Position numbers and translations under genes: made by a program
Virus record (IMG/VR): IMGVR_UViG_3300045988_034719
Coordinates: 1 to 5,894 of that record
DNA: 5,894 bases
Source: a virus
Reading direction: 5' to 3' (one strand)
Shown: piece by piece, positions 1-5,894 of the stretch
Layout of the letters: every line of letters starts with the position of its first letter
How positions within the stretch are numbered: the first letter of the stretch is position 1
The notes under the pieces: model-generated
Database searches by the model: none
What the model was told of the DNA's origin: nothing
Seen by the model: only the letters and a program-made list of their open reading frames with translations

Positions 1-55
1 AGCAGGCAGCGAGAGCAGCACAGGCAGCGAAAGCACAACCGGCAGTGTGACAGCA
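1..55. repeat. Terminal redundancy, left copy. Exact 55-nt duplicate of 5840..5894, the signature of a circular genome or assembly overlap.
   Basis: Base-by-base comparison: agcaggcagcgagagcagcacaggcagcgaaagcacaaccggcagtgtgacagca occurs at both window ends. The reading frame of the 3' end ORF (5736..5894) continues seamlessly into 2..757. Confidence 0.95.
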
Positions 56-757
56 CCGCAGCAGATCGGAACGGCACAAATCAGCACACCAACAGGCATT
101 GCCACATTTGGCAACCAGAGCAGTGTAAACACCGCAAACGCACTGCAAATGATGAGCGGACTACTGAGCAACCTCGCAAACGCCGGGAGCCAAGCAAGCG
201 CCAAGAAGTACAACAGCGCAGAAGCAGCAGCAGAAAGAGCGTTTCAGAAGGAAATGCGCGGGACAGCCTATCAAGACACTGTAAAAGATATGATCGCAGC
301 GGGCATCAATCCTATCTTAGCAGCGACCAACGGCGCAACAAGCTCACCGTCAGGAGCATCTGCAAGCATTGGAAGCCAACGTTATAACCAGCAGAGCGCA
401 CAAGCCGCAAGCGTATCCGCAATGTACGAATATGGCAACAACACAGCAGAGCTAGCAGACAAATACTTACAGCTAGCAAAACAGAGCACCAGCGCAAAAC
501 AGTATAAAAGCGCGAAAAGCTGGGAGCAGGCAGCAAGCGAGCTGGCAAGCTCAAGCGCAAAACAGGTGCAACAGTACACCTATACAGCTAACAAGTTAAG
601 CACAGGCCTTGCGGATGCTGGTAAAGCAGCAAAAGACGCTGTAAAAAAGGCTGGTAAAGCAGCCAAAGAAAGTATTGACAAGGCAGCAAAAAAATATGCA
701 GAAAAACAGATTGAAAAATACCGATCTAGAAAATTTGACGCATACAGAGGAGAATAA
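2..757 (+). CDS. VP2: Microviridae VP2 (DNA pilot / minor capsid protein), 3' portion. The ORF starts at 5736 and wraps across the circular junction. Full length is about 286 aa.
   Basis: The frame is open from position 2, and the track's GTG at 47 is an internal Val. It contains the conserved gokushovirus VP2 motif FQKEMRGTAYQDTVKDMIAAGINPILA (compare the ..STAYQR.V.DM.AAGLNP.L. family motif). The middle is Q/A/S-rich and the C-terminus is Lys/Ala-rich and helical. Stop TAA at 755..757, followed by a terminator. Confidence 0.85.
   Translation, partial: AGSESSTGSESTTGSVTAPQQIGTAQISTPTGIATFGNQSSVNTANALQMMSGLLSNLANAGSQASAKKYNSAEAAAERAFQKEMRGTAYQDTVKDMIAAGINPILAATNGATSSPSGASASIGSQRYNQQSAQAASVSAMYEYGNNTAELADKYLQLAKQSTSAKQYKSAKSWEQAASELASSSAKQVQQYTYTANKLSTGLADAGKAAKDAVKKAGKAAKESIDKAAKKYAEKQIEKYRSRKFDAYRGE
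617..669 (+). repeat. 33-nt-period direct repeat inside VP2, encoding 11-residue (hendecad) repeats AGKAAKDAVKK / AGKAAKESIDK.
   Basis: gctggtaaagcagcaaaaga (617..636) recurs as gctggtaaagcagccaaaga (650..669), with 19/20 identity and an offset of exactly 33 nt. Confidence 0.7.
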
Positions 758-763
758 GAAAGG

Positions 764-794
764 AAGGGGGGATGGCAAAACATCCCCCCTTTTT
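764..794 (+). terminator. Rho-independent terminator downstream of VP2.
   Basis: Stem ggggggatg (766..774) pairs with catcccccc (781..789), loop gcaaaa. AA/TT extension, then T-tract ttttt (790..794). It lies 7 nt after the VP2 stop. Confidence 0.8.
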
Positions 795-832
795 GTAACA
801 ATAATCCAAAAAATAAAGAATGTGGAAAACTT

Positions 833-1001
833 GAGTTTTCAACACTTTCAACAGGTTTTCAACAACAAGTTGCACAAAGAAATTCGTCAAAATGACGAAC
901 ATTCAACAATTCAACAAGTTTTCAACAAAGTATTCAACAGGAAAAAAGGCAATAAATAAACGTAGAAGCGTTAAAAAAACGAGTTTTCAACACTTTCAAC
1001 A
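833..1001 (+). repeat. Iteron array: nine same-strand copies of TTCAACA in three clusters, including a perfect 21-bp direct repeat.
   Basis: TTCAACA starts at 838, 847, 858, 902, 910, 921, 933, 986 and 995. Within-cluster spacing is 8-12 bp. gagttttcaacactttcaaca occurs at both 833..853 and 981..1001. The extended form (A/G)GTTTTCAACA occurs at 834, 854, 917 and 982. The region is non-coding by my assessment. Confidence 0.85.
883..899 (+). other. Small perfect hairpin between iteron clusters.
   Basis: ttcgtca (883..889), aaa, tgacgaa (893..899): a 7-bp inverted repeat with a 3-nt spacer. Confidence 0.5.
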
Positions 1002-1020
1002 CTACTACTACTACTACTAC
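1001..1020 (+). repeat. Trinucleotide microsatellite (ACT)6AC.
   Basis: actactactactactactac read directly. It abuts the last TTCAACA iteron (995..1001) and lies 7-10 nt upstream of an AT-rich TAATATATAAA box (1028..1038). Confidence 0.95.
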
Positions 1021-1044
1021 AACAAGTTAATATATAAAGAAAGC

Positions 1045-1095
1045 GAGGTGTCAACCGGCACAAGATAGACAAGGAAGCTTGTGCCGGTAACAAAA
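1045..1095 (+). promoter_or_regulatory. VP4 translation-initiation region: SD GAGGTG (1045..1050), an 11-bp-stem hairpin (1054..1064 / 1078..1088, 13-nt loop), then 7 nt before ATG 1096.
   Basis: accggcacaag (1054..1064) is the perfect reverse complement of cttgtgccggt (1078..1088). Loop atagacaaggaag contains a second SD-like AAGGAAG. The alternative GTG start (1081) is inside the 3' stem arm. Confidence 0.5.
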
Positions 1096-2085
1096 ATGCC
1101 ATGTACAAAACCATTAGTATTTCAGATGGACACGAAAAAACCGCAACTGTGGGGAAGTCTGGAAAACCTATCCAAACAAGGACTGCAAACGGACATCATG
1201 GACGGAATCAAAAAAGGAAAATTCGCATTGTTACCATGCGGTAAGTGTGAGTATTGCAGAAAACAGATGGCTGATCAATGGGCAACCAGAATAGAGCTAG
1301 AGGCCAAAGAATGGGACGATGTGATTTTTCTAACGCTGACATATGACGATGAACATATCCCATACGGCGAGATTATCAAAGGCTACAGAAGCATTCAAAG
1401 TCAGACAGTAAGCAAACGAGACGTGCAGCTATTTATAAAGCGGCTACGAAAAGCATACAAGAAACCAATAAAATATTTCCTAGCTGCTGAATATGGCGAC
1501 AGAACAAAAAGACCGCACTACCATGCAATAGTATTTGGACTAAAACCACCGGATGCACAATGGTATAAAAACCAAAAGGGCAACAGCTATTTTAAAAGCG
1601 AGTGGCTAGAAAAAATCTGGGGCAAAGGCATGATAGACTTTTCACCAGCGCAACCGGGAAGTTTCGCATATGTGGCACAATACGTCAACAAAAAAGCCAT
1701 AGGCGCAGAGCAAGCGGCGAAATACTGGATGGAAGGCCGAGAGCCAGAGTTCCGCATCATGTCGAAAGGCATCGGCGAAAAGTATCTGAACGAACACAAA
1801 AACGAAATCTTGAAAACAGATAGCATCATCTGTGCAGGAGGCCGCAAGAAAAGGCCTCCGCGCTATTTTGATAAGATTCTAGATAAAGATACCAGCCAAG
1901 ACACAGAAAACTATTTTAGGGCACATTCTGACGAGCTGAGAGAGGTTAGAGCCAGACGCAGACGCAGCGCAATACAAAGTTTGGTCAATCTCGAGCAAAA
2001 CACAAGTGTAGATTATGAAACCTATCTCAACATTCAGAAAGAAAAAGACAAGCTAAAGCAAAAGTGGCGTGAGCCGAAAGCATAA
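1081..2085 (+). CDS. VP4: Microviridae VP4 replication initiation protein (HUH rolling-circle endonuclease). The alternative start ATG 1096 is equally plausible.
   Basis: Motifs read from the translation: CGKCEYCRKQMADQW (Cys cluster typical of gokushovirus VP4), FLTLTY (RCR motif 1), RPHYHAIVFG (HUH motif, H146/H148, nt 1516..1524), YVAQYVNKK (catalytic Tyr motif, Y197/Y201, nt 1669..1683). Starting at ATG 1096 gives MPCTKPL, a typical VP4 N-terminus. Confidence 0.9.
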   Translation: MPVTKMPCTKPLVFQMDTKKPQLWGSLENLSKQGLQTDIMDGIKKGKFALLPCGKCEYCRKQMADQWATRIELEAKEWDDVIFLTLTYDDEHIPYGEIIKGYRSIQSQTVSKRDVQLFIKRLRKAYKKPIKYFLAAEYGDRTKRPHYHAIVFGLKPPDAQWYKNQKGNSYFKSEWLEKIWGKGMIDFSPAQPGSFAYVAQYVNKKAIGAEQAAKYWMEGREPEFRIMSKGIGEKYLNEHKNEILKTDSIICAGGRKKRPPRYFDKILDKDTSQDTENYFRAHSDELREVRARRRRSAIQSLVNLEQNTSVDYETYLNIQKEKDKLKQKWREPKA

Positions 2086-2199
2086 CGCGCACAGCGCTAA
2101 CAAGGAATGGATTAGCCGAGCTCCGCATACGCTACGCACGGCAAGGCGCTAAAGCGCCATTCAAAACAAAGGAGCAAGACCTGCGCAAAAAATAAAAAC

Positions 2200-2228
2200 T
2201 TGACAAATGTAAAATTTTATGATATAAT
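2200..2228 (+). promoter_or_regulatory. Consensus sigma70/sigmaA promoter P1 (TTGACA, 17 nt, TGnTATAAT).
   Basis: TTGACA at 2200..2205, exact 17-nt spacer, TATAAT at 2223..2228, extended -10 TG at 2220..2221, A-rich UP-like tract aaaaaataaaaac upstream. The predicted TSS is near 2235, just upstream of the SD and ATG of the 2254 ORF. Confidence 0.75.
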
Positions 2229-2253
2229 AGATCATAGAAAGGGGGCAAACATT

Positions 2254-2433
2254 ATGCCATACAAATACAACGAAAAAGGAAAGGTGATCGGATACACACC
2301 TAGTATAGGAGGATTCATGAGAGAACCATACACCACAAACAAAAAAACGGGCGAATGGGAGAGCCGATCAGGGCAACTCACAAGACAAAGAATCAATCAA
2401 TTAGACAAAGAGAAAAAAATAGCATGGTTTTGA
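2254..2433 (+). CDS. Hypothetical small protein, 59 aa (MPYKYNEKGKVIGYTPSIGGFMREPYTT...).
   Basis: ATG 2254 is preceded by SD AAGGGGG (2239..2245) with an 8-nt spacer, downstream of P1. The track's TTG start at 2200 coincides with the -35 box and would lie upstream of the TSS. I recognise no family. Confidence 0.55.
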   Translation: MPYKYNEKGKVIGYTPSIGGFMREPYTTNKKTGEWESRSGQLTRQRINQLDKEKKIAWF

Positions 2434-2445
2434 GAGGTAAGCAAT

Positions 2446-2616
2446 ATGAAAGAGTACAAATTTTTGGTGAGAGTATATTTCAAAAACGGTACAAAAGAAC
2501 AAAGAACGTGGATAGAGACAACCAAAGACGCCAAGGAAAAAGCAAAAAAATGCAGAGAGGAAACAAACGTAACAAAAGTAACGCTTTACAGAATAGACCA
2601 AACATTTGAGTTTTAA
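2446..2616 (+). CDS. Hypothetical small protein, 56 aa (MKEYKFLVRVYFKNGTKEQRTWIETTKDAKEKAKKCREETNVTKVTLYRIDQTFEF). Not in the ORF track because it is under 60 aa.
   Basis: Hand translation. SD GAGAGG (2432..2437) lies 8 nt before ATG 2446. The sequence has a globular-looking beta-beta-alpha-beta residue pattern. The stop at 2614..2616 lies 4 nt before the -35 box of P2 (tight packing). The competing 2355..2609 frame is Lys/Arg low-complexity. Confidence 0.5.
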   Translation: MKEYKFLVRVYFKNGTKEQRTWIETTKDAKEKAKKCREETNVTKVTLYRIDQTFEF

Positions 2617-2620
2617 AAAG

Positions 2621-2648
2621 TTGACAAAAATCAAAAACATAGTAAAAT
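2621..2648 (+). promoter_or_regulatory. Near-consensus sigma70/sigmaA promoter P2 (TTGACA, 16 nt, TAAAAT) in front of the peptidase gene.
   Basis: TTGACA at 2621..2626 and TAAAAT at 2643..2648. The upstream context AAAAAGTTGACAAA closely resembles P1 (AAAAACTTGACAAA). Caveat: the predicted TSS (about 2655) falls at the SD, giving a very short leader. Confidence 0.55.
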
Positions 2649-2667
2649 AAGAATAGGAGAATTAAAC

Positions 2668-3060
2668 ATGGAAATCAAAGCATATGTAGTAGAAGAACAA
2701 GGAAACGAACAAATCACAGACCACTTCAAAGTAAAAGAATTCGCTTGCAAAGACGGGACACCAATCGTATTTGTTGACGATTATTTAGCAGTCATTCTAG
2801 AGATCGCAAGAAAAAAAATCAATAAACCAATCGTCATCACAAGCGGATACCGCACAATAAACCACAACAAAAAAGTAGGAGGAGCAAAATACAGCTACCA
2901 TACGAGAGGCATGGCAGCAGACATCAGAGCGAACGGAGTAACGCCAAAGGAACTTGCAAAAGTGCTAAACAGCATCGTACCAAACAGCGGCGGAATCATC
3001 GTATATGAAAACTGGGTGCATTTCGACACAAGAAATGAAAAATACAGAAAGGGGGTGTAA
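2668..3060 (+). CDS. Zinc D-Ala-D-Ala carboxypeptidase-like cell-wall peptidase, Peptidase M15 (M15_3/M15A-type). Candidate endolysin, 130 aa.
   Basis: Motifs: ITSGYRTINHNKKVGGAKYSYHTRGMAADI and WVHFDTR, giving the H-x6-D...H zinc triad (H78, D85, H118) and the SxHxxGxAxD signature of LAS/M15 peptidases. SD AGGAGA (2655..2660) lies 7 nt before the ATG. No signal peptide or TM segment is evident. Confidence 0.85.
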   Translation: MEIKAYVVEEQGNEQITDHFKVKEFACKDGTPIVFVDDYLAVILEIARKKINKPIVITSGYRTINHNKKVGGAKYSYHTRGMAADIRANGVTPKELAKVLNSIVPNSGGIIVYENWVHFDTRNEKYRKGV

Positions 3061-3062
3061 CA

Positions 3063-3179
3063 ATGGCACACAGAAGCGGAGCAGGTCGAGGCGATCAAAG
3101 ACGCTTTACCCAGACAGCAAAGAGGGTAAAAAATGTCAACGTCCGACCGAAGGTCTCACGCGGCGGCATCCGACTGTAA
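3063..3179 (+). CDS. Small basic DNA-binding/packaging protein (phiX J-like / gokushovirus ORF8-like), 38 aa. Not in the ORF track.
   Basis: Hand translation: MAHRSGAGRGDQRRFTQTAKRVKNVNVRPKVSRGGIRL. It is rich in Arg/Lys and ends in RGGIRL, resembling the C-terminal (M)RGGIR(L/F) that I recall in gokushovirus ORF8 proteins. SD GGGGGTG (3051..3057) lies 5 nt before ATG 3063. The start is 2 nt after the peptidase stop. Confidence 0.65.
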   Translation: MAHRSGAGRGDQRRFTQTAKRVKNVNVRPKVSRGGIRL

Positions 3180-3210
3180 GCAATACAAAACAAAGAAAGG
3201 AGGTGACTTA

Positions 3211-3327
3211 ATGGCATTAATCAAAGTCAAGGACGTTAAAGAAGCAATCGCGCTGATGATGAACATCCTTGAAAAGCTAGATGAAATCTACCACGCACTG
3301 AAAGACGCAAACAAAGACAAAGAATAA
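3211..3327 (+). CDS. Hypothetical 38-aa amphipathic helical protein (MALIKVKDVKEAIALMMNILEKLDEIYHALKDANKDKE).
   Basis: ATG 3211 is preceded by AGAAAGGAGGTGA (3194..3206), a 13-nt perfect complement to the canonical 16S rRNA 3' end and the strongest SD in the window. The track's longer 3133 start has no SD and overlaps the J-like ORF. Confidence 0.55.
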   Translation: MALIKVKDVKEAIALMMNILEKLDEIYHALKDANKDKE

Positions 3328-3337
3328 AGGAGAAAAC

Positions 3338-3592
3338 ATGAAACTGAAATTCTACTCATTCCACGATGCACTGACCAACGGCTACTCTCAGCCGTTTCTG
3401 CAGAACAACAGGGCACAGGCAGTCCGGACGGCACGATGGAAGGCCAACGAAAGCAAACCGAGTGAAATTGAAGATATTTCACTCGTAGAACTGGGCGAAT
3501 TCGACACGGAAACCGGCTACATGAGCGAGGCAATGCCTGAACACATCGCACGACTCATCGACCTGAAGGAGACGACAAATGCTAAATCCTGA
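3338..3592 (+). CDS. VP5: Gokushovirus VP5-like protein (non-structural, implicated in ssDNA synthesis/packaging), 84 aa.
   Basis: The pattern MKLKFYSFHD..YSQPF......AVRT........ED..LVELGEFDTETG matches the conserved VP5 layout (Y.QPF, A.R.F, ED..L.E.G.FD..TG). SD AAGGAG (3327..3332) lies 5 nt before the ATG. Confidence 0.8.
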   Translation: MKLKFYSFHDALTNGYSQPFLQNNRAQAVRTARWKANESKPSEIEDISLVELGEFDTETGYMSEAMPEHIARLIDLKETTNAKS

Positions 3593-3998
3593 TGTGATGG
3601 TAAGATACTACGGACTGCCGACCGAAAGAGCGGCAAACAATCCGGGCAGCAAGACCTCGCCAACGTGGAAAGCAGTTAAACGACCGAACGGCACAACCGA
3701 CTACATCGAGCAGCCGGACGAGGACACATACGAAAAAATCCAGAAAGCGGGCGAGGGCTACGACCTTGCAAGCGCGATCGCACGGCTGGAAGCAGGGGAT
3801 ACGAGCATCAAGGCAAAGAGCATGGTGTACACCGAAAACACTGAACTCGAAAATCTGCCGAAAGACATCATGACGATGCACGAAAAAGCAGAAGCAGCAG
3901 CCGAAACAATGGAACAGCTGAAACAGGTGCAGCAGACCGAACAGCCGAAGCCAGAAGAAAAAAAGGAAGAGGTGAAGGAAAACGAACCGAAACAGTGA
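3579..3998 (+). CDS. Putative internal scaffolding protein (VP3-like), 139 aa. The functional assignment is tentative.
   Basis: SD AAGGAG (3566..3571) lies 7 nt before ATG 3579. There is a 14-nt overlap with VP5, and the gene sits immediately upstream of VP1. The protein is acidic with a highly charged C-terminal tail (EQPKPEEKKEEVKENEPKQ). I can verify only weak resemblance to VP3 motifs. Confidence 0.55.
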   Translation: MLNPDVMVRYYGLPTERAANNPGSKTSPTWKAVKRPNGTTDYIEQPDEDTYEKIQKAGEGYDLASAIARLEAGDTSIKAKSMVYTENTELENLPKDIMTMHEKAEAAAETMEQLKQVQQTEQPKPEEKKEEVKENEPKQ

Positions 3999-4023
3999 AA
4001 ACCATTTCGCGCAAGTGCCGCGA

Positions 4024-5697
4024 ATGGAACGACCACGAAGCAAATTTGACAGAAGCCATCAGCTACTGACAACCATCAACGAAGGCGATCTGGTGCCCAT
4101 CTACTGCGATGAAGTGCTTCCGGGTGATACAGCACGTGTACGCCTGAACGGACTTATCCGTATGAGTACGCCCATCTATCCGGTGATGGATAACGCATAC
4201 ATGGACACATATTTCTTCTTTGTTCCATGCCGTCTGCTGTGGGAACACTGGGAGAACATGTTCGGCGAGAATGACACCGACTACTGGGCGCAAAAGATGG
4301 AATACAGCACACCCAAATGCGAAATTGGTGGGGAGAGCGGACTTAACAACGGCAGCATTGGCGACTATTTCGGACTGCCTACCGGAGTAAAAAACAAAAT
4401 CAGAGTGAACGCGCTGCCAGCACGCGCCTACGCCATGATATATAACGAATGGTTTAGAGATGAAAATATTGAAGCGCCGTTAATGTTAGGGTACAAAAAA
4501 GAAGATAGCGGAGGAAAAGAAACAAATCCCGGGAACGCAACAAAAGATTACTACGCAAACAAACCAAAACTAACGACAAACACAAACGAAGCGATCTTAT
4601 ACGCACGACAACCGGCAAAGGTGGGAAAATTCCACGACTACTTCACATCCTGTCTTCCTACTCCGTTGAAAAATAACCCTGTTAACCCTGTGGAAATCAG
4701 CCTGACGGGAAATGCACCACTTAAACTAGGAGATATAAATGGTAAACCAATTCCAAGCCTAGAAACGGGCAATGGGCCAGAAATGGTAATAGCCGTGAAC
4801 CAAAATCTAAATACCCCGGGAACGTTAACTTACGCAAGAGCAACAGACAAAAAAGTAATGCAATTCACGGGAAAAAAGGATAACGAAATCGGCGGAGGCG
4901 GTTTTTTGTACACAGACCTCAGCGGAGTAAGCGCAATCAGCATTCAGGATTTGCGCATGGCTATTGCCTTGCAGCACATCTTTGAAGCAGATGCACGCAA
5001 CGGCACGCGCTACCGCGAGTTCCTTTCCGGCGCATGGGGCGTGACAAGTCCGGACAGCCGTTTACAGATTCCTGAATACATCGGCGGCCAACGCATCGCG
5101 ATCAATATCAACCAGGTTGTCCAGACGAGCCAGACAGACCCGACAACCAAACAGGCACTGGGCAATACGGCGGCATACAGTCTGACCACGTGCAGCAAGC
5201 AAATGGTGGACTATGCGGCGACCGAATACGGCTATATCATCGGTCTGGCAGTAGTGCGAGTAGAGCACAGTTACCAGCAGGGACTGGCAACCAAGTGGAC
5301 ACGTGGCGGGCGGTTCACCTACTACGACCCGAGACTAGCAGCACTGGGCGAGCAGCCGGTATATAACCGTGAAATCTATGCACAGGGCACAACCGAAGAT
5401 GACGAAATCTTTGGATATCAAGAGGCATGGGCGGATTACCGCTACAAGCCTTCCTACGTAACCGGAGAAATGAGATCCAATTACCAGACAAGTCTGGATG
5501 CATGGCACTATGCAGACGATTATAACGCTCTTCCGCGTCTCTCGGCAGAGTGGATCCAAGAGGGACAGGAGAACATCGACCGAACGATTGCAGTAACAAG
5601 CGCAAAAAGCCACCAATTCTTGTGTGACTTCTACTTCACAGAAGATTGGTATCGCGAAATGCCTATCTATAGCATCCCGGGCATCGAGAGAATCTAA
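4024..5697 (+). CDS. VP1: Microviridae major capsid protein VP1 (Phage_F family), 557 aa. An alternative GTG start lies at 4015.
   Basis: N-terminal RSKFDRSH....T.NEGDLVPIYCDEVLPGDT, plus LRMAIALQHIFEADARNGTRYREFLSGAWGV..PDSRLQIPEYIGG, are hallmark VP1/F motifs. No SD precedes either start. A 6-bp hairpin (4006..4011 / 4019..4024) spans the start region. Confidence 0.95.
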   Translation: MERPRSKFDRSHQLLTTINEGDLVPIYCDEVLPGDTARVRLNGLIRMSTPIYPVMDNAYMDTYFFFVPCRLLWEHWENMFGENDTDYWAQKMEYSTPKCEIGGESGLNNGSIGDYFGLPTGVKNKIRVNALPARAYAMIYNEWFRDENIEAPLMLGYKKEDSGGKETNPGNATKDYYANKPKLTTNTNEAILYARQPAKVGKFHDYFTSCLPTPLKNNPVNPVEISLTGNAPLKLGDINGKPIPSLETGNGPEMVIAVNQNLNTPGTLTYARATDKKVMQFTGKKDNEIGGGGFLYTDLSGVSAISIQDLRMAIALQHIFEADARNGTRYREFLSGAWGVTSPDSRLQIPEYIGGQRIAININQVVQTSQTDPTTKQALGNTAAYSLTTCSKQMVDYAATEYGYIIGLAVVRVEHSYQQGLATKWTRGGRFTYYDPRLAALGEQPVYNREIYAQGTTEDDEIFGYQEAWADYRYKPSYVTGEMRSNYQTSLDAWHYADDYNALPRLSAEWIQEGQENIDRTIAVTSAKSHQFLCDFYFTEDWYREMPIYSIPGIERI

Positions 5698-5707
5698 GAA
5701 AGGAGGA

Positions 5708-5733
5708 AGCCCCGCAAAAGCGGGGCTATTTTT
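5708..5733 (+). terminator. Rho-independent terminator between VP1 and VP2. It also acts as the hairpin bridging SD 5699..5706 to the VP2 ATG at 5736.
   Basis: agccccgc (5708..5715), loop aaaa, gcggggct (5720..5727), then atttttt... (tattttt to 5733). It lies 11 nt after the VP1 stop (5695..5697). Confidence 0.75.
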
Positions 5734-5735
5734 GA

Positions 5736-5894
5736 ATGGAAACATTATTAAGGTTTATGCCATACCTCATGCAAGGACTAAGCATGTTAACGGGCATCAT
5801 AACGAACAGCAACCAGAGCGGCGCCAAGAACAGCCAAGAAGCAGGCAGCGAGAGCAGCACAGGCAGCGAAAGCACAACCGGCAGTGTGACAGCA
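5736..5894 (+). CDS. VP2: VP2 (DNA pilot protein), 5' portion. It runs off the window end and continues at position 56 of the window (5840..5894 duplicates 1..55).
   Basis: The frame from ATG 5736 (METLLRFMPYLMQGLSMLTGIITNSNQSG..) is in frame with 2..757, since 5886 GTG equals 47 GTG. It has the hydrophobic N-terminus typical of VP2. An in-frame alternative ATG lies at 5757. Confidence 0.75.
   Translation, partial: METLLRFMPYLMQGLSMLTGIITNSNQSGAKNSQEAGSESSTGSESTTGSVTA
5840..5894. repeat. Terminal redundancy, right copy. Identical to 1..55.
   Basis: Same 55-nt string as 1..55. Implies a circular unit length of 5839 nt. Confidence 0.95.

Follow-up and report, generated by a model that had tools for sequence, protein, structure and literature searches.

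How would a microvirus with a genome of less than 6 kb open the cell wall of its host? Gokushoviruses lack a gene like E of phiX174, and some of them have acquired bacterial peptidases (Kirchberger and Ochman 2020). The DNA analysed here, a stretch of 5,894 nt from a virus (IMG/VR record IMGVR_UViG_3300045988_034719, positions 1 to 5,894; hereafter the window), had been described in an initial annotation as a microvirus genome that encodes a candidate endolysin of the M15 peptidase type behind a promoter of its own and that carries no recognisable holin. The locus thus raises two questions: what such an enzyme does for the virus, and how it would reach the wall.

A circular gokushovirus genome

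The 5,894-nt window ends in a terminal direct repeat of 55 nt and therefore represents a circular genome, of 5,839 nt. Every recognisable gene lies on the + strand. The window is a Gokushovirinae genome: the characteristic set of VP1 (Phage_F), VP2 pilot protein, VP4 Rep, VP5 and VP3 scaffold is present on one strand of a circle within the range of ~4.5–6 kb, and the Human gut gokushovirus KX513876 shares 88% nucleotide identity with the window across 83% of the length. The genes other than the peptidase are the following.

Across the junction, ending at 757, + strand: VP2 pilot protein (phrog_18604, E = 1e-103)
1081–2085, + strand: VP4 replication initiator (PF23343, phrog_942)
2254–2433, + strand: orf59, an accessory ORF of 59 aa with no Pfam, PHROG or NCBIfam match and no transmembrane (TM) segment
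2446–2616, + strand: orf56, an accessory ORF of 56 aa with no TM segment and no family match
3063–3179, + strand: J/VP8-like arginine-rich protein of 38 aa, next after the peptidase (phrog_10695, E = 5e-6)
3211–3327, + strand: orf38, a 38-aa amphipathic-helix ORF conserved among relatives
3338–3592, + strand: VP5 (PF20577)
3579–3998, + strand: VP3-like scaffold protein (weak Chlamy_scaf match, under the cut-off)
4015–5697, + strand: VP1 (PF02305, E = 1.5e-145)

The gene order M15, J-like, orf38, VP5, VP3-like, VP1, as it had been read initially, agrees with the ORFs and with their Pfam and PHROG matches, the VP3-like match being the one under its cut-off. The J-like protein was found in 78 of 80 relatives and orf38 in 77 of 80; among the matches listed, the best are 92–97% and 95–100% identical, respectively. 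Both are well conserved even in genomes whose peptidases are only ~63% identical. Orf59 and orf56 each occur in just 3 of the 80 related genomes. A scan of the whole window against Rfam returned nothing close to any gathering score.

The intergenic region between VP2 and VP4 contains a repeat element, with nine copies of TTCAACA within positions 838–1001 and then a series of ACT repeats. The number of copies expected there is 1.0, and none of 200 shuffles reached nine. Of 114 related genomes, 107 have a TTCAACA element of ~200 nt next to VP4. In 52 of them the element is in + orientation immediately before VP4 and is ~97% identical in nucleotide sequence among the examples listed, the VP1 proteins of this set being ~75–88% identical; in 55 others it is inverted and located between VP4 and the peptidase, mostly at ~75% identity and in some cases partial. 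We regard the element as a possible origin of replication or binding region for Rep.

A predicted M15 zinc peptidase with an intact active site

2668–3060, + strand: Peptidase_M15_3 gene (130 aa, 14.7 kDa, pI 9.3), catalytic domain alone
2899–2901, + strand: codon of candidate zinc-site residue H78
2920–2922, + strand: codon of candidate zinc-site residue D85
3019–3021, + strand: codon of candidate zinc-site residue H118
3025–3027, + strand: codon of candidate zinc-site residue D120

The 130-aa ORF reported at this position, together with its motifs, was recovered as described. It starts at an ATG that leaves no possibility of an in-frame N-terminal extension, and its sequence contains YSYH78-TRGMAA-D85 and WVH118FD120. 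The protein matches PF08291 (Peptidase_M15_3, clan Peptidase_MD) with 80.2 bits and E = 1.5e-22, from position 2 to position 108 of the 108 in the profile, and it also matches PF05951 with 27.6 bits; the curated Pfam cut-offs are 23.2 and 27 bits, respectively. Among the PHROGs it matches phrog_894, annotated 'endolysin' (E = 7.1e-42). With 42.5 bits, the match to the NCBIfam equivalog for MepK, NF053624, stays under the cut-off of 185, and at the sequence level the protein is a domain related to MepK, an L,D-endopeptidase of E. coli, and no MepK orthologue.

In an alignment of 39 diverse homologues, which extend down to 38% identity, H78, D85, H118 and D120 are invariant; they are likewise invariant across 39 full-length microviral copies. 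In the Streptomyces albus zinc D-Ala-D-Ala carboxypeptidase (PDB 1LBU), the residues aligned with H78 and D85 are 154 and 161, which we take to be zinc ligands of that protein; either H118 or D120 is a candidate for the third ligand. LAS enzymes have a C-terminal H-x-H motif, whereas the window peptidase has H-x-D at this place.

An AlphaFold2 model built on the alignment of homologues has a mean pLDDT of 97.3 and a pTM of 0.91. Foldseek matched it in the PDB to 1LBU, VanY, the endolysin domain of Ply500, the L-Ala-D-Glu endopeptidase ChiX, LysB4, LdcB and Shh-N (the hedgehog N-domain), with TM-scores of ~0.5 and sequence identities of 14–21%. A sequence-profile search of the PDB likewise gave 1LBU as the best match (E = 7.6e-12) and found VanY also; from the single sequence, 1LBU is a weak match. 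The PDB copy searched holds no M15_3 structure. In the viral structure library, which contains several entries named 'Peptidase [Microvirus ...]', the top matches to the model are phage peptidases with TM-scores of 0.93–0.96. With 1LBU, VanY, Ply500 and ChiX the window peptidase shares H-x6-D, a C-terminal His and the hedgehog/DD-peptidase fold.

Sequence and model together predict an intact M15/LAS zinc peptidase with the hedgehog/DD-peptidase fold. The complete LAS/M15 zinc site that had been recognised initially in YSYH78-x6-D85 and WVH118FD120 therefore withstands scrutiny, with all four residues invariant. The two comparisons that the initial annotation had proposed, with profile HMMs and with LAS structures, came out in its favour, the former with PF08291 and phrog_894 and the latter with a model that matches LAS peptidase folds. 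Its reading of the gene as a candidate endolysin is supported by the PHROG label, the Pfam family and the intact site.

A recurrent promoter ahead of the structural genes

2200–2228, + strand: predicted promoter P1, TTGACA-17-TATAAT, 12/12 match, with a TG-extended −10
2621–2648, + strand: predicted promoter P2 of the sigma-70/sigma-A type, TTGACA at 2621–2626, 16-nt spacer, TAAAAT at 2643–2648, 11/12 match
2655–2659, + strand: Shine–Dalgarno sequence AGGAG, 8 nt before the peptidase ATG
5708–5727, + strand: terminator-like GC hairpin and T-run just past the VP1 stop (−18.2 kcal/mol, z = −4.0)
764–791, + strand: terminator-like hairpin after VP2

P2 ends, at the last position of its −10 hexamer, 19 nt from the peptidase ATG. 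Matches of at least 11 of 12 positions occur twice on the + strand of the window, against 0.054 expected, and none of the 500 dinucleotide shuffles that served as the null model contained two. A looser scan, for 9 of 12 matches, gave 9 sites against 6.5 expected, which is not above chance. Across 80 related microvirus genomes (449 kb), the + strand has 75 sites of at least 11/12 and the − strand has 0. Such a site ends 0–60 nt before the peptidase ATG in 37 of the 80 genomes; the remaining strong sites are mostly found at most 450 nt upstream of the peptidase, 13 of them at 200–300 nt. The sequence around these promoters is often unrelated from one relative to another. Since the promoter recurs in 37 of 80 genomes, on the coding strand alone and within unrelated flanks, it is a recurrent, selected feature. 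AGGAG/GGAG-type motifs are also found upstream of the peptidase in relatives. The TTGACA-16-TAAAAT promoter and good Shine–Dalgarno sequence of the initial annotation are thus corroborated by the 11/12 match, the AGGAG, the shuffles and the relatives.

P1 would drive orf59 and orf56 and would read on into the peptidase, and the hairpin at 5708–5727 is probably the end, or an attenuator, of the unit begun at P1 or P2. The peptidase had been placed first in an apparent late operon. The gene order behind that statement stands; the peptidase is not strictly first, because P1, a 12/12 match 420 nt upstream, precedes the two small ORFs orf59 and orf56, and the word 'late' has no support. We propose that the peptidase is the first conserved gene of a unit that also encodes the J-like protein, orf38, VP5, VP3 and VP1.

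Fixation, selection and exchange of the gene

An M15 gene is present on each of the 54 viral contigs with a VP1 at least 67% identical, and the only contigs that lack it are six distant ones, with VP1 at most 50% identical. For the microviral peptidase, dN/dS has a median of 0.18 and a maximum of 0.33 (460 pairs from 38 unique ungapped copies). The peptidase is fixed in this lineage and is under purifying selection. A protein search found 1,341 relatives, and most of the best 120 of these 1,341 are on contigs no longer than a microvirus genome (at most ~6 kb). The GenBank gokushoviruses KX513868, KX513876 and KX513877 carry the annotation 'peptidase M15'. With the gene in 54 of 54 genomes, in GenBank annotations and in papers from 2012 on, the earlier impression that M15 genes had been noted only sporadically in microviruses was mistaken.

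Nucleotide identity to relatives delimits a region that appears to move as one piece:

2084–3069, + strand: mobile accessory-plus-peptidase block (orf59, orf56, peptidase)

This block is 95% identical to its counterpart in one relative, L004, the rest of which is barely alignable at the nucleotide level, and 85–92% identical (depending on the BLAST mode) to that of KX513868, whose backbone is also barely alignable. Outside the block, the window is 82–92% identical in nucleotides to KX513876 and to another relative, L003. The peptidases of KX513876 and the window share 59.7% amino acid identity, and the window peptidase is 92% identical to that of KX513868 and 95% identical to a metagenomic cluster named 'peptidase [Microviridae sp.]' (P0001). 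The window genome is a new recombinant that unites a KX513876-like backbone with a KX513868/L004-like peptidase block, and the peptidase block has recombined between backbones. The exchange resembles the kind reported by Kirchberger et al. 2022 (PMC9239249), who documented block recombination and described peptidases as recurrent microviral accessory genes.

Mobility between backbones would be expected of a passenger that recombination carries along without benefit to the virus, and the gene might alternatively have a non-lytic role, in wall remodelling or in the exclusion of competitor phages. We consider either of these highly unlikely, given that purifying selection acts on the gene, its catalytic residues are invariant, every genome of the lineage has it and a genome of 5.8 kb devotes a strong promoter to it.

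Affinity to the endolysins of Oscillospirales phages and prophages

The closest non-microviral relatives in the phage collection are the endolysins of the Faecalibacterium phages Lelie and Toutatis, which are 47% identical to the window peptidase. Both are bare domains with two TM proteins behind them; the Toutatis endolysin has 137 aa, and its two neighbours with TM segments follow directly after it. A scan of bacterial genomes, which took one genome per species and used narrow peptide patterns that favour the nearest relatives over the whole family, found 41 loci at 36–47% identity, all in Clostridia and nearly all in the order Oscillospirales (Oscillibacter, Dysosmobacter, Faecalibacterium, Papillibacter, Acutalibacteraceae and Ruminococcaceae). 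The same scan returned no prophage copy of the microvirus in bacterial genomes, the best match being 47% identical.

The surroundings of these loci resemble those of lysis genes. A TM ORF on the same strand lies within 900 nt at 25 of the 28 bacterial loci with enough flank, and at several loci a holin-like ORF of 60–85 aa with two TM segments stands immediately upstream of the peptidase. The peptidases at bacterial loci are mostly longer, in ORFs of 190–340 aa, and the more distant homologues are fusions with GH25 muramidase, PG_binding_1, SH3_3 and lectin domains; the family as a whole counts 11,576 cluster representatives at E ≤ 0.001. The holin-like neighbours and the fusions to wall domains indicate that this clade within M15_3 belongs to the enzymes of the assembled wall. 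The Toutatis, Lelie and Oscillospirales prophage endolysins have the same M15_3 domain as the window peptidase, at 36–47% amino acid identity. By contrast with the microviral gene, which has neither, the Oscillospirales endolysins are found beside TM holin-like proteins (the 25 of 28 loci) and mostly carry extra domains. This comparison suggests that the microviruses retained the catalytic domain alone of the M15_3 endolysins.

Much of this picture has been drawn before. Among the Microviridae associated with humans, Roux et al. 2012 (PMC3394797) described 11 that encode M15_3 peptidases; five of the 11 were Gokushovirinae, and four of these five were affiliated with Faecalibacterium. The same authors showed the bacterial homologues in a holin-containing context, named a 'possible endolysin gene' obtained by horizontal transfer and speculated on Gram-positive hosts. 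The human-gut Gokushovirinae genes and the one described here have in common the virus group, the Pfam family, the position after VP4, the Faecalibacterium/Clostridiales affinity and the proposed endolysin role. Nothing of kind sets the window peptidase apart from them, and the new element is the pairing of backbone and block in a recombinant. M15 genes are also present in cultured microviruses whose hosts are Roseobacter and Bacteroides fragilis (PMC11499846, PMC13064476); the first of these sources, like PMC9239249, likewise reads microviral M15 genes as endolysins. The gene, its horizontal origin, its probable endolysin role and the hint of a Clostridiales host are, in sum, already known. 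The statement that microviral M15 enzymes had never been characterised holds for the literature searched, which contains no biochemical characterisation of one.

The Oscillospirales affinity of the peptidase is evident in its sequence relationships, and from it we infer an Oscillospirales-type host for the window virus. The sigma-A-type promoters, the extended −10 and the good Shine–Dalgarno sequence fit a host among the Clostridia better than one among the Bacteroidota, judging from general knowledge of promoter and ribosome-binding-site usage. CRISPR spacers have tied some gut Microviridae to Clostridiales (Shkoporov et al. 2019, 10.1101/657528).

No holin, signal or membrane partner in the genome

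A cytoplasmic endolysin by itself is normally harmless. Taking a mean Kyte–Doolittle hydropathy of at least 1.6 over 19 residues as the mark of a TM segment, we found none in any of the three + frames across the whole window, with ORFs down to 25 aa included. The highest mean in these ORFs, at the N-terminus of VP2, is 1.23. The peptidase itself reaches a maximum of 1.16 and begins with an acidic N-terminus (MEIKAYVVEEQGNEQ), and neither its N-terminus nor its hydropathy reveals a signal peptide or SAR domain. These values bear out the initial observation that a signal peptide, SAR domain and TM holin candidate are all missing here.

The same is true of the relatives, 77 of 80 of which also have no + strand TM ORF. 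The three exceptions are an ORF overprinted on VP1 (L058), a contig of 10.9 kb (L037) and a genome in which a holin-like ORF of 55 aa overlaps the peptidase start (L017), an arrangement seen in 1 of the 80 genomes. This 55-aa TM ORF was considered as a captured prophage holin and rejected, since it has no similarity to the holin-like ORFs of Oscillospirales.

Three further candidates were set aside. Orf59 and orf56 were examined as lysis partners; neither has a TM segment or matches any family, and with each of them present in only 3 of 80 relatives, there is no consistent linkage to the peptidase. An overprinted gene like E was discarded because no + frame scanned holds a TM ORF. Hydrophobic ORFs on the minus strand, for example one of 153 aa at 3582–4043, were weighed as hidden holins and are expected from base composition: A makes up 38% of the + strand and T 16%, and 56% of dinucleotide shuffles contain an open stretch on the minus strand that runs to 153 codons or more. 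The 75 strong promoter-like sites in the 449 kb of relatives are all on the + strand.

Of the canonical holin–endolysin cassette the genome has the gene for a predicted muralytic enzyme and no adjacent holin with 1–3 TM segments. The peptidase has no N-terminal signal or SAR domain of the kind found in secreted or SAR endolysins. The three + frames scanned contain no small membrane protein of the phiX174 E type. What phiX174 has in common with the release proposed here is that a small phage lyses its host without a holin–endolysin pair; the difference is that protein E is an overprinted membrane protein that inhibits MraY, whereas the window peptidase is a predicted enzyme in a genome with no TM ORF in its + frames.

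An enzyme that worked where it is made would need no partner. In such a form of single-gene lysis, the cytoplasmic peptidase would cut the peptide stem of UDP-MurNAc-pentapeptide or lipid II, wall synthesis would run short of precursors and growing cells would burst. Lysis of this kind would account for the missing holin and signal (77 of 80 genomes) as well as for the lost wall-binding domains. VanX and VanY, which are M15 relatives, act on substrates containing D-Ala-D-Ala, and VanY is among the fold matches of the model. Blocked wall synthesis is a known mode of lysis for microviruses and ssRNA phages (PMC10614894). We nevertheless think such a mechanism quite improbable here, for the literature searched offers no precedent, the same bare domain adjoins TM proteins in Faecalibacterium phages, close homologues are fused to domains that bind the sacculus, and the microviral copies share no sequence feature that sets them apart from those endolysins.

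Release or entry

Another use of the enzyme that would require no holin is entry. A few copies of the peptidase, carried in the virion, would open the peptidoglycan during DNA delivery, and progeny would be released by other means. The peptidase shares its transcription unit with the structural genes, as would suit a virion protein. M15 domains also occur in phage proteins of 800–1,200 aa and beside a gp5 OB-fold domain; if the large proteins are virion-associated, as we assume from their size, a role in entry is possible for the M15 family. The T=1 capsid of Microviridae offers little spare volume, and the peptidase has no recognisable capsid-interaction or pilot-like segment. Its closest relatives in tailed phages are lysis-cassette endolysins beside TM proteins and not structural proteins.

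An analogy in favour of entry comes from Ebor Gp7, a microvirus peptidoglycan hydrolase of which traces were detected in virions (PMC11980548); in the literature searched, no other peptidoglycan hydrolase of an ssDNA phage has been verified by experiment. Like Ebor Gp7, the window peptidase would be a peptidoglycan hydrolase encoded by a microvirus, in our case a proposed one. The two differ in that Gp7 has an HHpred match to 6SSC_A and is not described as an M15 peptidase (PMC11980548), and in that Ebor, a member of the Tainavirinae with the alphaproteobacterial host Rhodobacter, belongs to a different microvirus subfamily from the window virus. On balance we judge a role in entry unlikely.

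Several lines of evidence support the interpretation that we consider probable, namely that a soluble M15_3 domain captured from a (pro)phage cassette of Oscillospirales serves this gokushovirus as the endolysin for progeny release: the match to phrog_894, the invariant site, the LAS fold, the holin-flanked relatives, the dN/dS of 0.18 and the recurrence of the promoter. Against it stands the lack of an evident route to the wall, with no TM ORF here or in 77 of 80 relatives.

As we picture it, the gene would have been acquired from tailed phages or prophages of Clostridia, in the order Oscillospirales (Faecalibacterium/Oscillibacter group), as a part of their lysis cassette, and the holin and the wall-binding domains would have been left behind at that step. 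The captured gene would then have become fixed in the lineage, where recombination carries it between backbones. Transcription of the peptidase, at the head of the structural-protein unit, would start from a strong promoter of the sigma-A type and give a short leader, and the soluble zinc peptidase, consisting of the catalytic domain alone, would lyse the cell from within and so release the progeny. We infer this lysis from within, and with it an access to the wall that needs no dedicated holin: the enzyme might pass after late damage to the membrane or loss of membrane potential, or with the help of an unrecognised helper that has no TM segment. Because there is no holin, the timing of lysis would be set by accumulation of the enzyme.

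As a discovery, the addition made here is small, the M15 gene being already annotated in public records. What the analysis sharpens is the question of release without a holin, by setting the 77 of 80 genomes that have no TM ORF against the holin-like neighbours at 25 of 28 bacterial loci. If the enzyme did act on wall precursors, it would stand beside the 'protein antibiotic' lysis proteins (phiX174 E, Qbeta A2 and phage M Lys) as an equivalent that works by catalysis, which would explain why the lineage keeps an enzyme without holin, signal or wall-binding domain. If abundant gut gokushoviruses do infect Gram-positive-type Oscillospirales, they would have a kind of host that, to our knowledge, no cultured microvirus has. 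The enzyme is small, conserved and easily expressed, and it would be the first characterised M15 lysin of a microvirus.

Genome form and elements flanking VP2, VP1 and VP4

The window carries an exact 55-nt terminal direct repeat (1-55 is identical to 5840-5894), so it represents a 5839-nt circular genome, whose junction is spanned by the VP2 (pilot) ORF, running from about 5736 to 757. Two strong hairpins, each followed by a T-run, lie directly 3′ of stop codons and are probably terminators or attenuators:

764-791 (+): GC hairpin and T-run directly after the VP2 stop codon (−25.2 kcal/mol, z = −5.7)
5708-5727 (+): GC hairpin and T-run directly after the stop codon of VP1, the Phage_F capsid gene (−18.2 kcal/mol, z = −4.0)

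Beside the Rep gene VP4 lies a further element:

820-1040: iteron-like element, with TTCAACA copies at 838-1001 and an ACT repeat run at about 1003-1020

The + strand holds nine copies of TTCAACA against 1.0 expected, a count reached in 0 of 200 shuffles. We found the element in 107 of 114 related genomes, always adjoining VP4, either upstream in the + orientation (52 genomes; about 97% nucleotide identity among the matches listed) or downstream and inverted (55 genomes; mostly about 75% identity, with some matches only partial). The element is a candidate for either an origin of replication or a region bound by VP4.

ORFs around the peptidase gene

Upstream of the gene for the M15 peptidase, a candidate endolysin, window 2200-2616 is a variable accessory region with the following features:

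2200-2228: promoter TTGACA-17-TATAAT, a perfect match with a TG extended −10, 5′ of the two small ORFs
2254-2433: small ORF, 59 aa, with a ribosome-binding site
2446-2616: small ORF, 56 aa, with a ribosome-binding site

Neither ORF has a family match or a transmembrane segment, and each is present in only 3 of 80 related microvirus genomes. Across these 80 whole genomes, promoter-like sites (at least 11 of 12 matches to the TTGACA/TATAAT hexamers) number 75 on the coding strand and 0 on the opposite strand; nearly all are grouped within 450 nt upstream of the peptidase gene. About 17 sites coincide with the 5′ end of the peptidase ORF or fall slightly within it.

The only holin-like candidate adjoining the peptidase gene among the 80 genomes is found in a single relative, L017 (IMGVR_UViG_3300045988_062519):

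L017 2775-2942 (+): 55-aa ORF overlapping the peptidase gene start

Its product has a strongly hydrophobic core (mean hydropathy 2.5) and a charged C-terminus, and does not resemble the products of the holin-like ORFs beside the Oscillospirales homologues of the peptidase.

In the window, a hydrophobic ORF lies opposite VP3:

3582-4043 (−): antisense ORF, 153 aa

A match is present in 23 relatives. Roux et al. 2012 (PMC3394797) mention a 153-codon complementary-strand ORF, possibly the same one, for Human_gut_33_003. Shuffles indicate that an A-rich, T-poor sequence would by its composition give antisense ORFs of this length.

Exchange of the accessory-plus-peptidase block

Two ORFs immediately downstream of the peptidase gene (window 3063-3327), one for the 38-aa J-like protein and then an amphipathic one of 38 aa, both overlapped by a third frame at 3133-3327, are found in 77-78 of the 80 genomes, with 92-100% identity in the best matches listed. 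Peptidase identity in the same genomes is about 63%, far below that of these two ORFs. Window 2084-3069, comprising the accessory ORFs and the peptidase gene, is 95% identical at the nucleotide level to L004, a relative with an unrelated backbone. Outside this block, the genome is 82-92% identical to the human gut gokushovirus KX513876 and to another relative, L003, and the KX513876 peptidase shares only 59.7% amino acid identity with that of the window. The accessory-plus-peptidase block 2084-3069 has been swapped between backbones.
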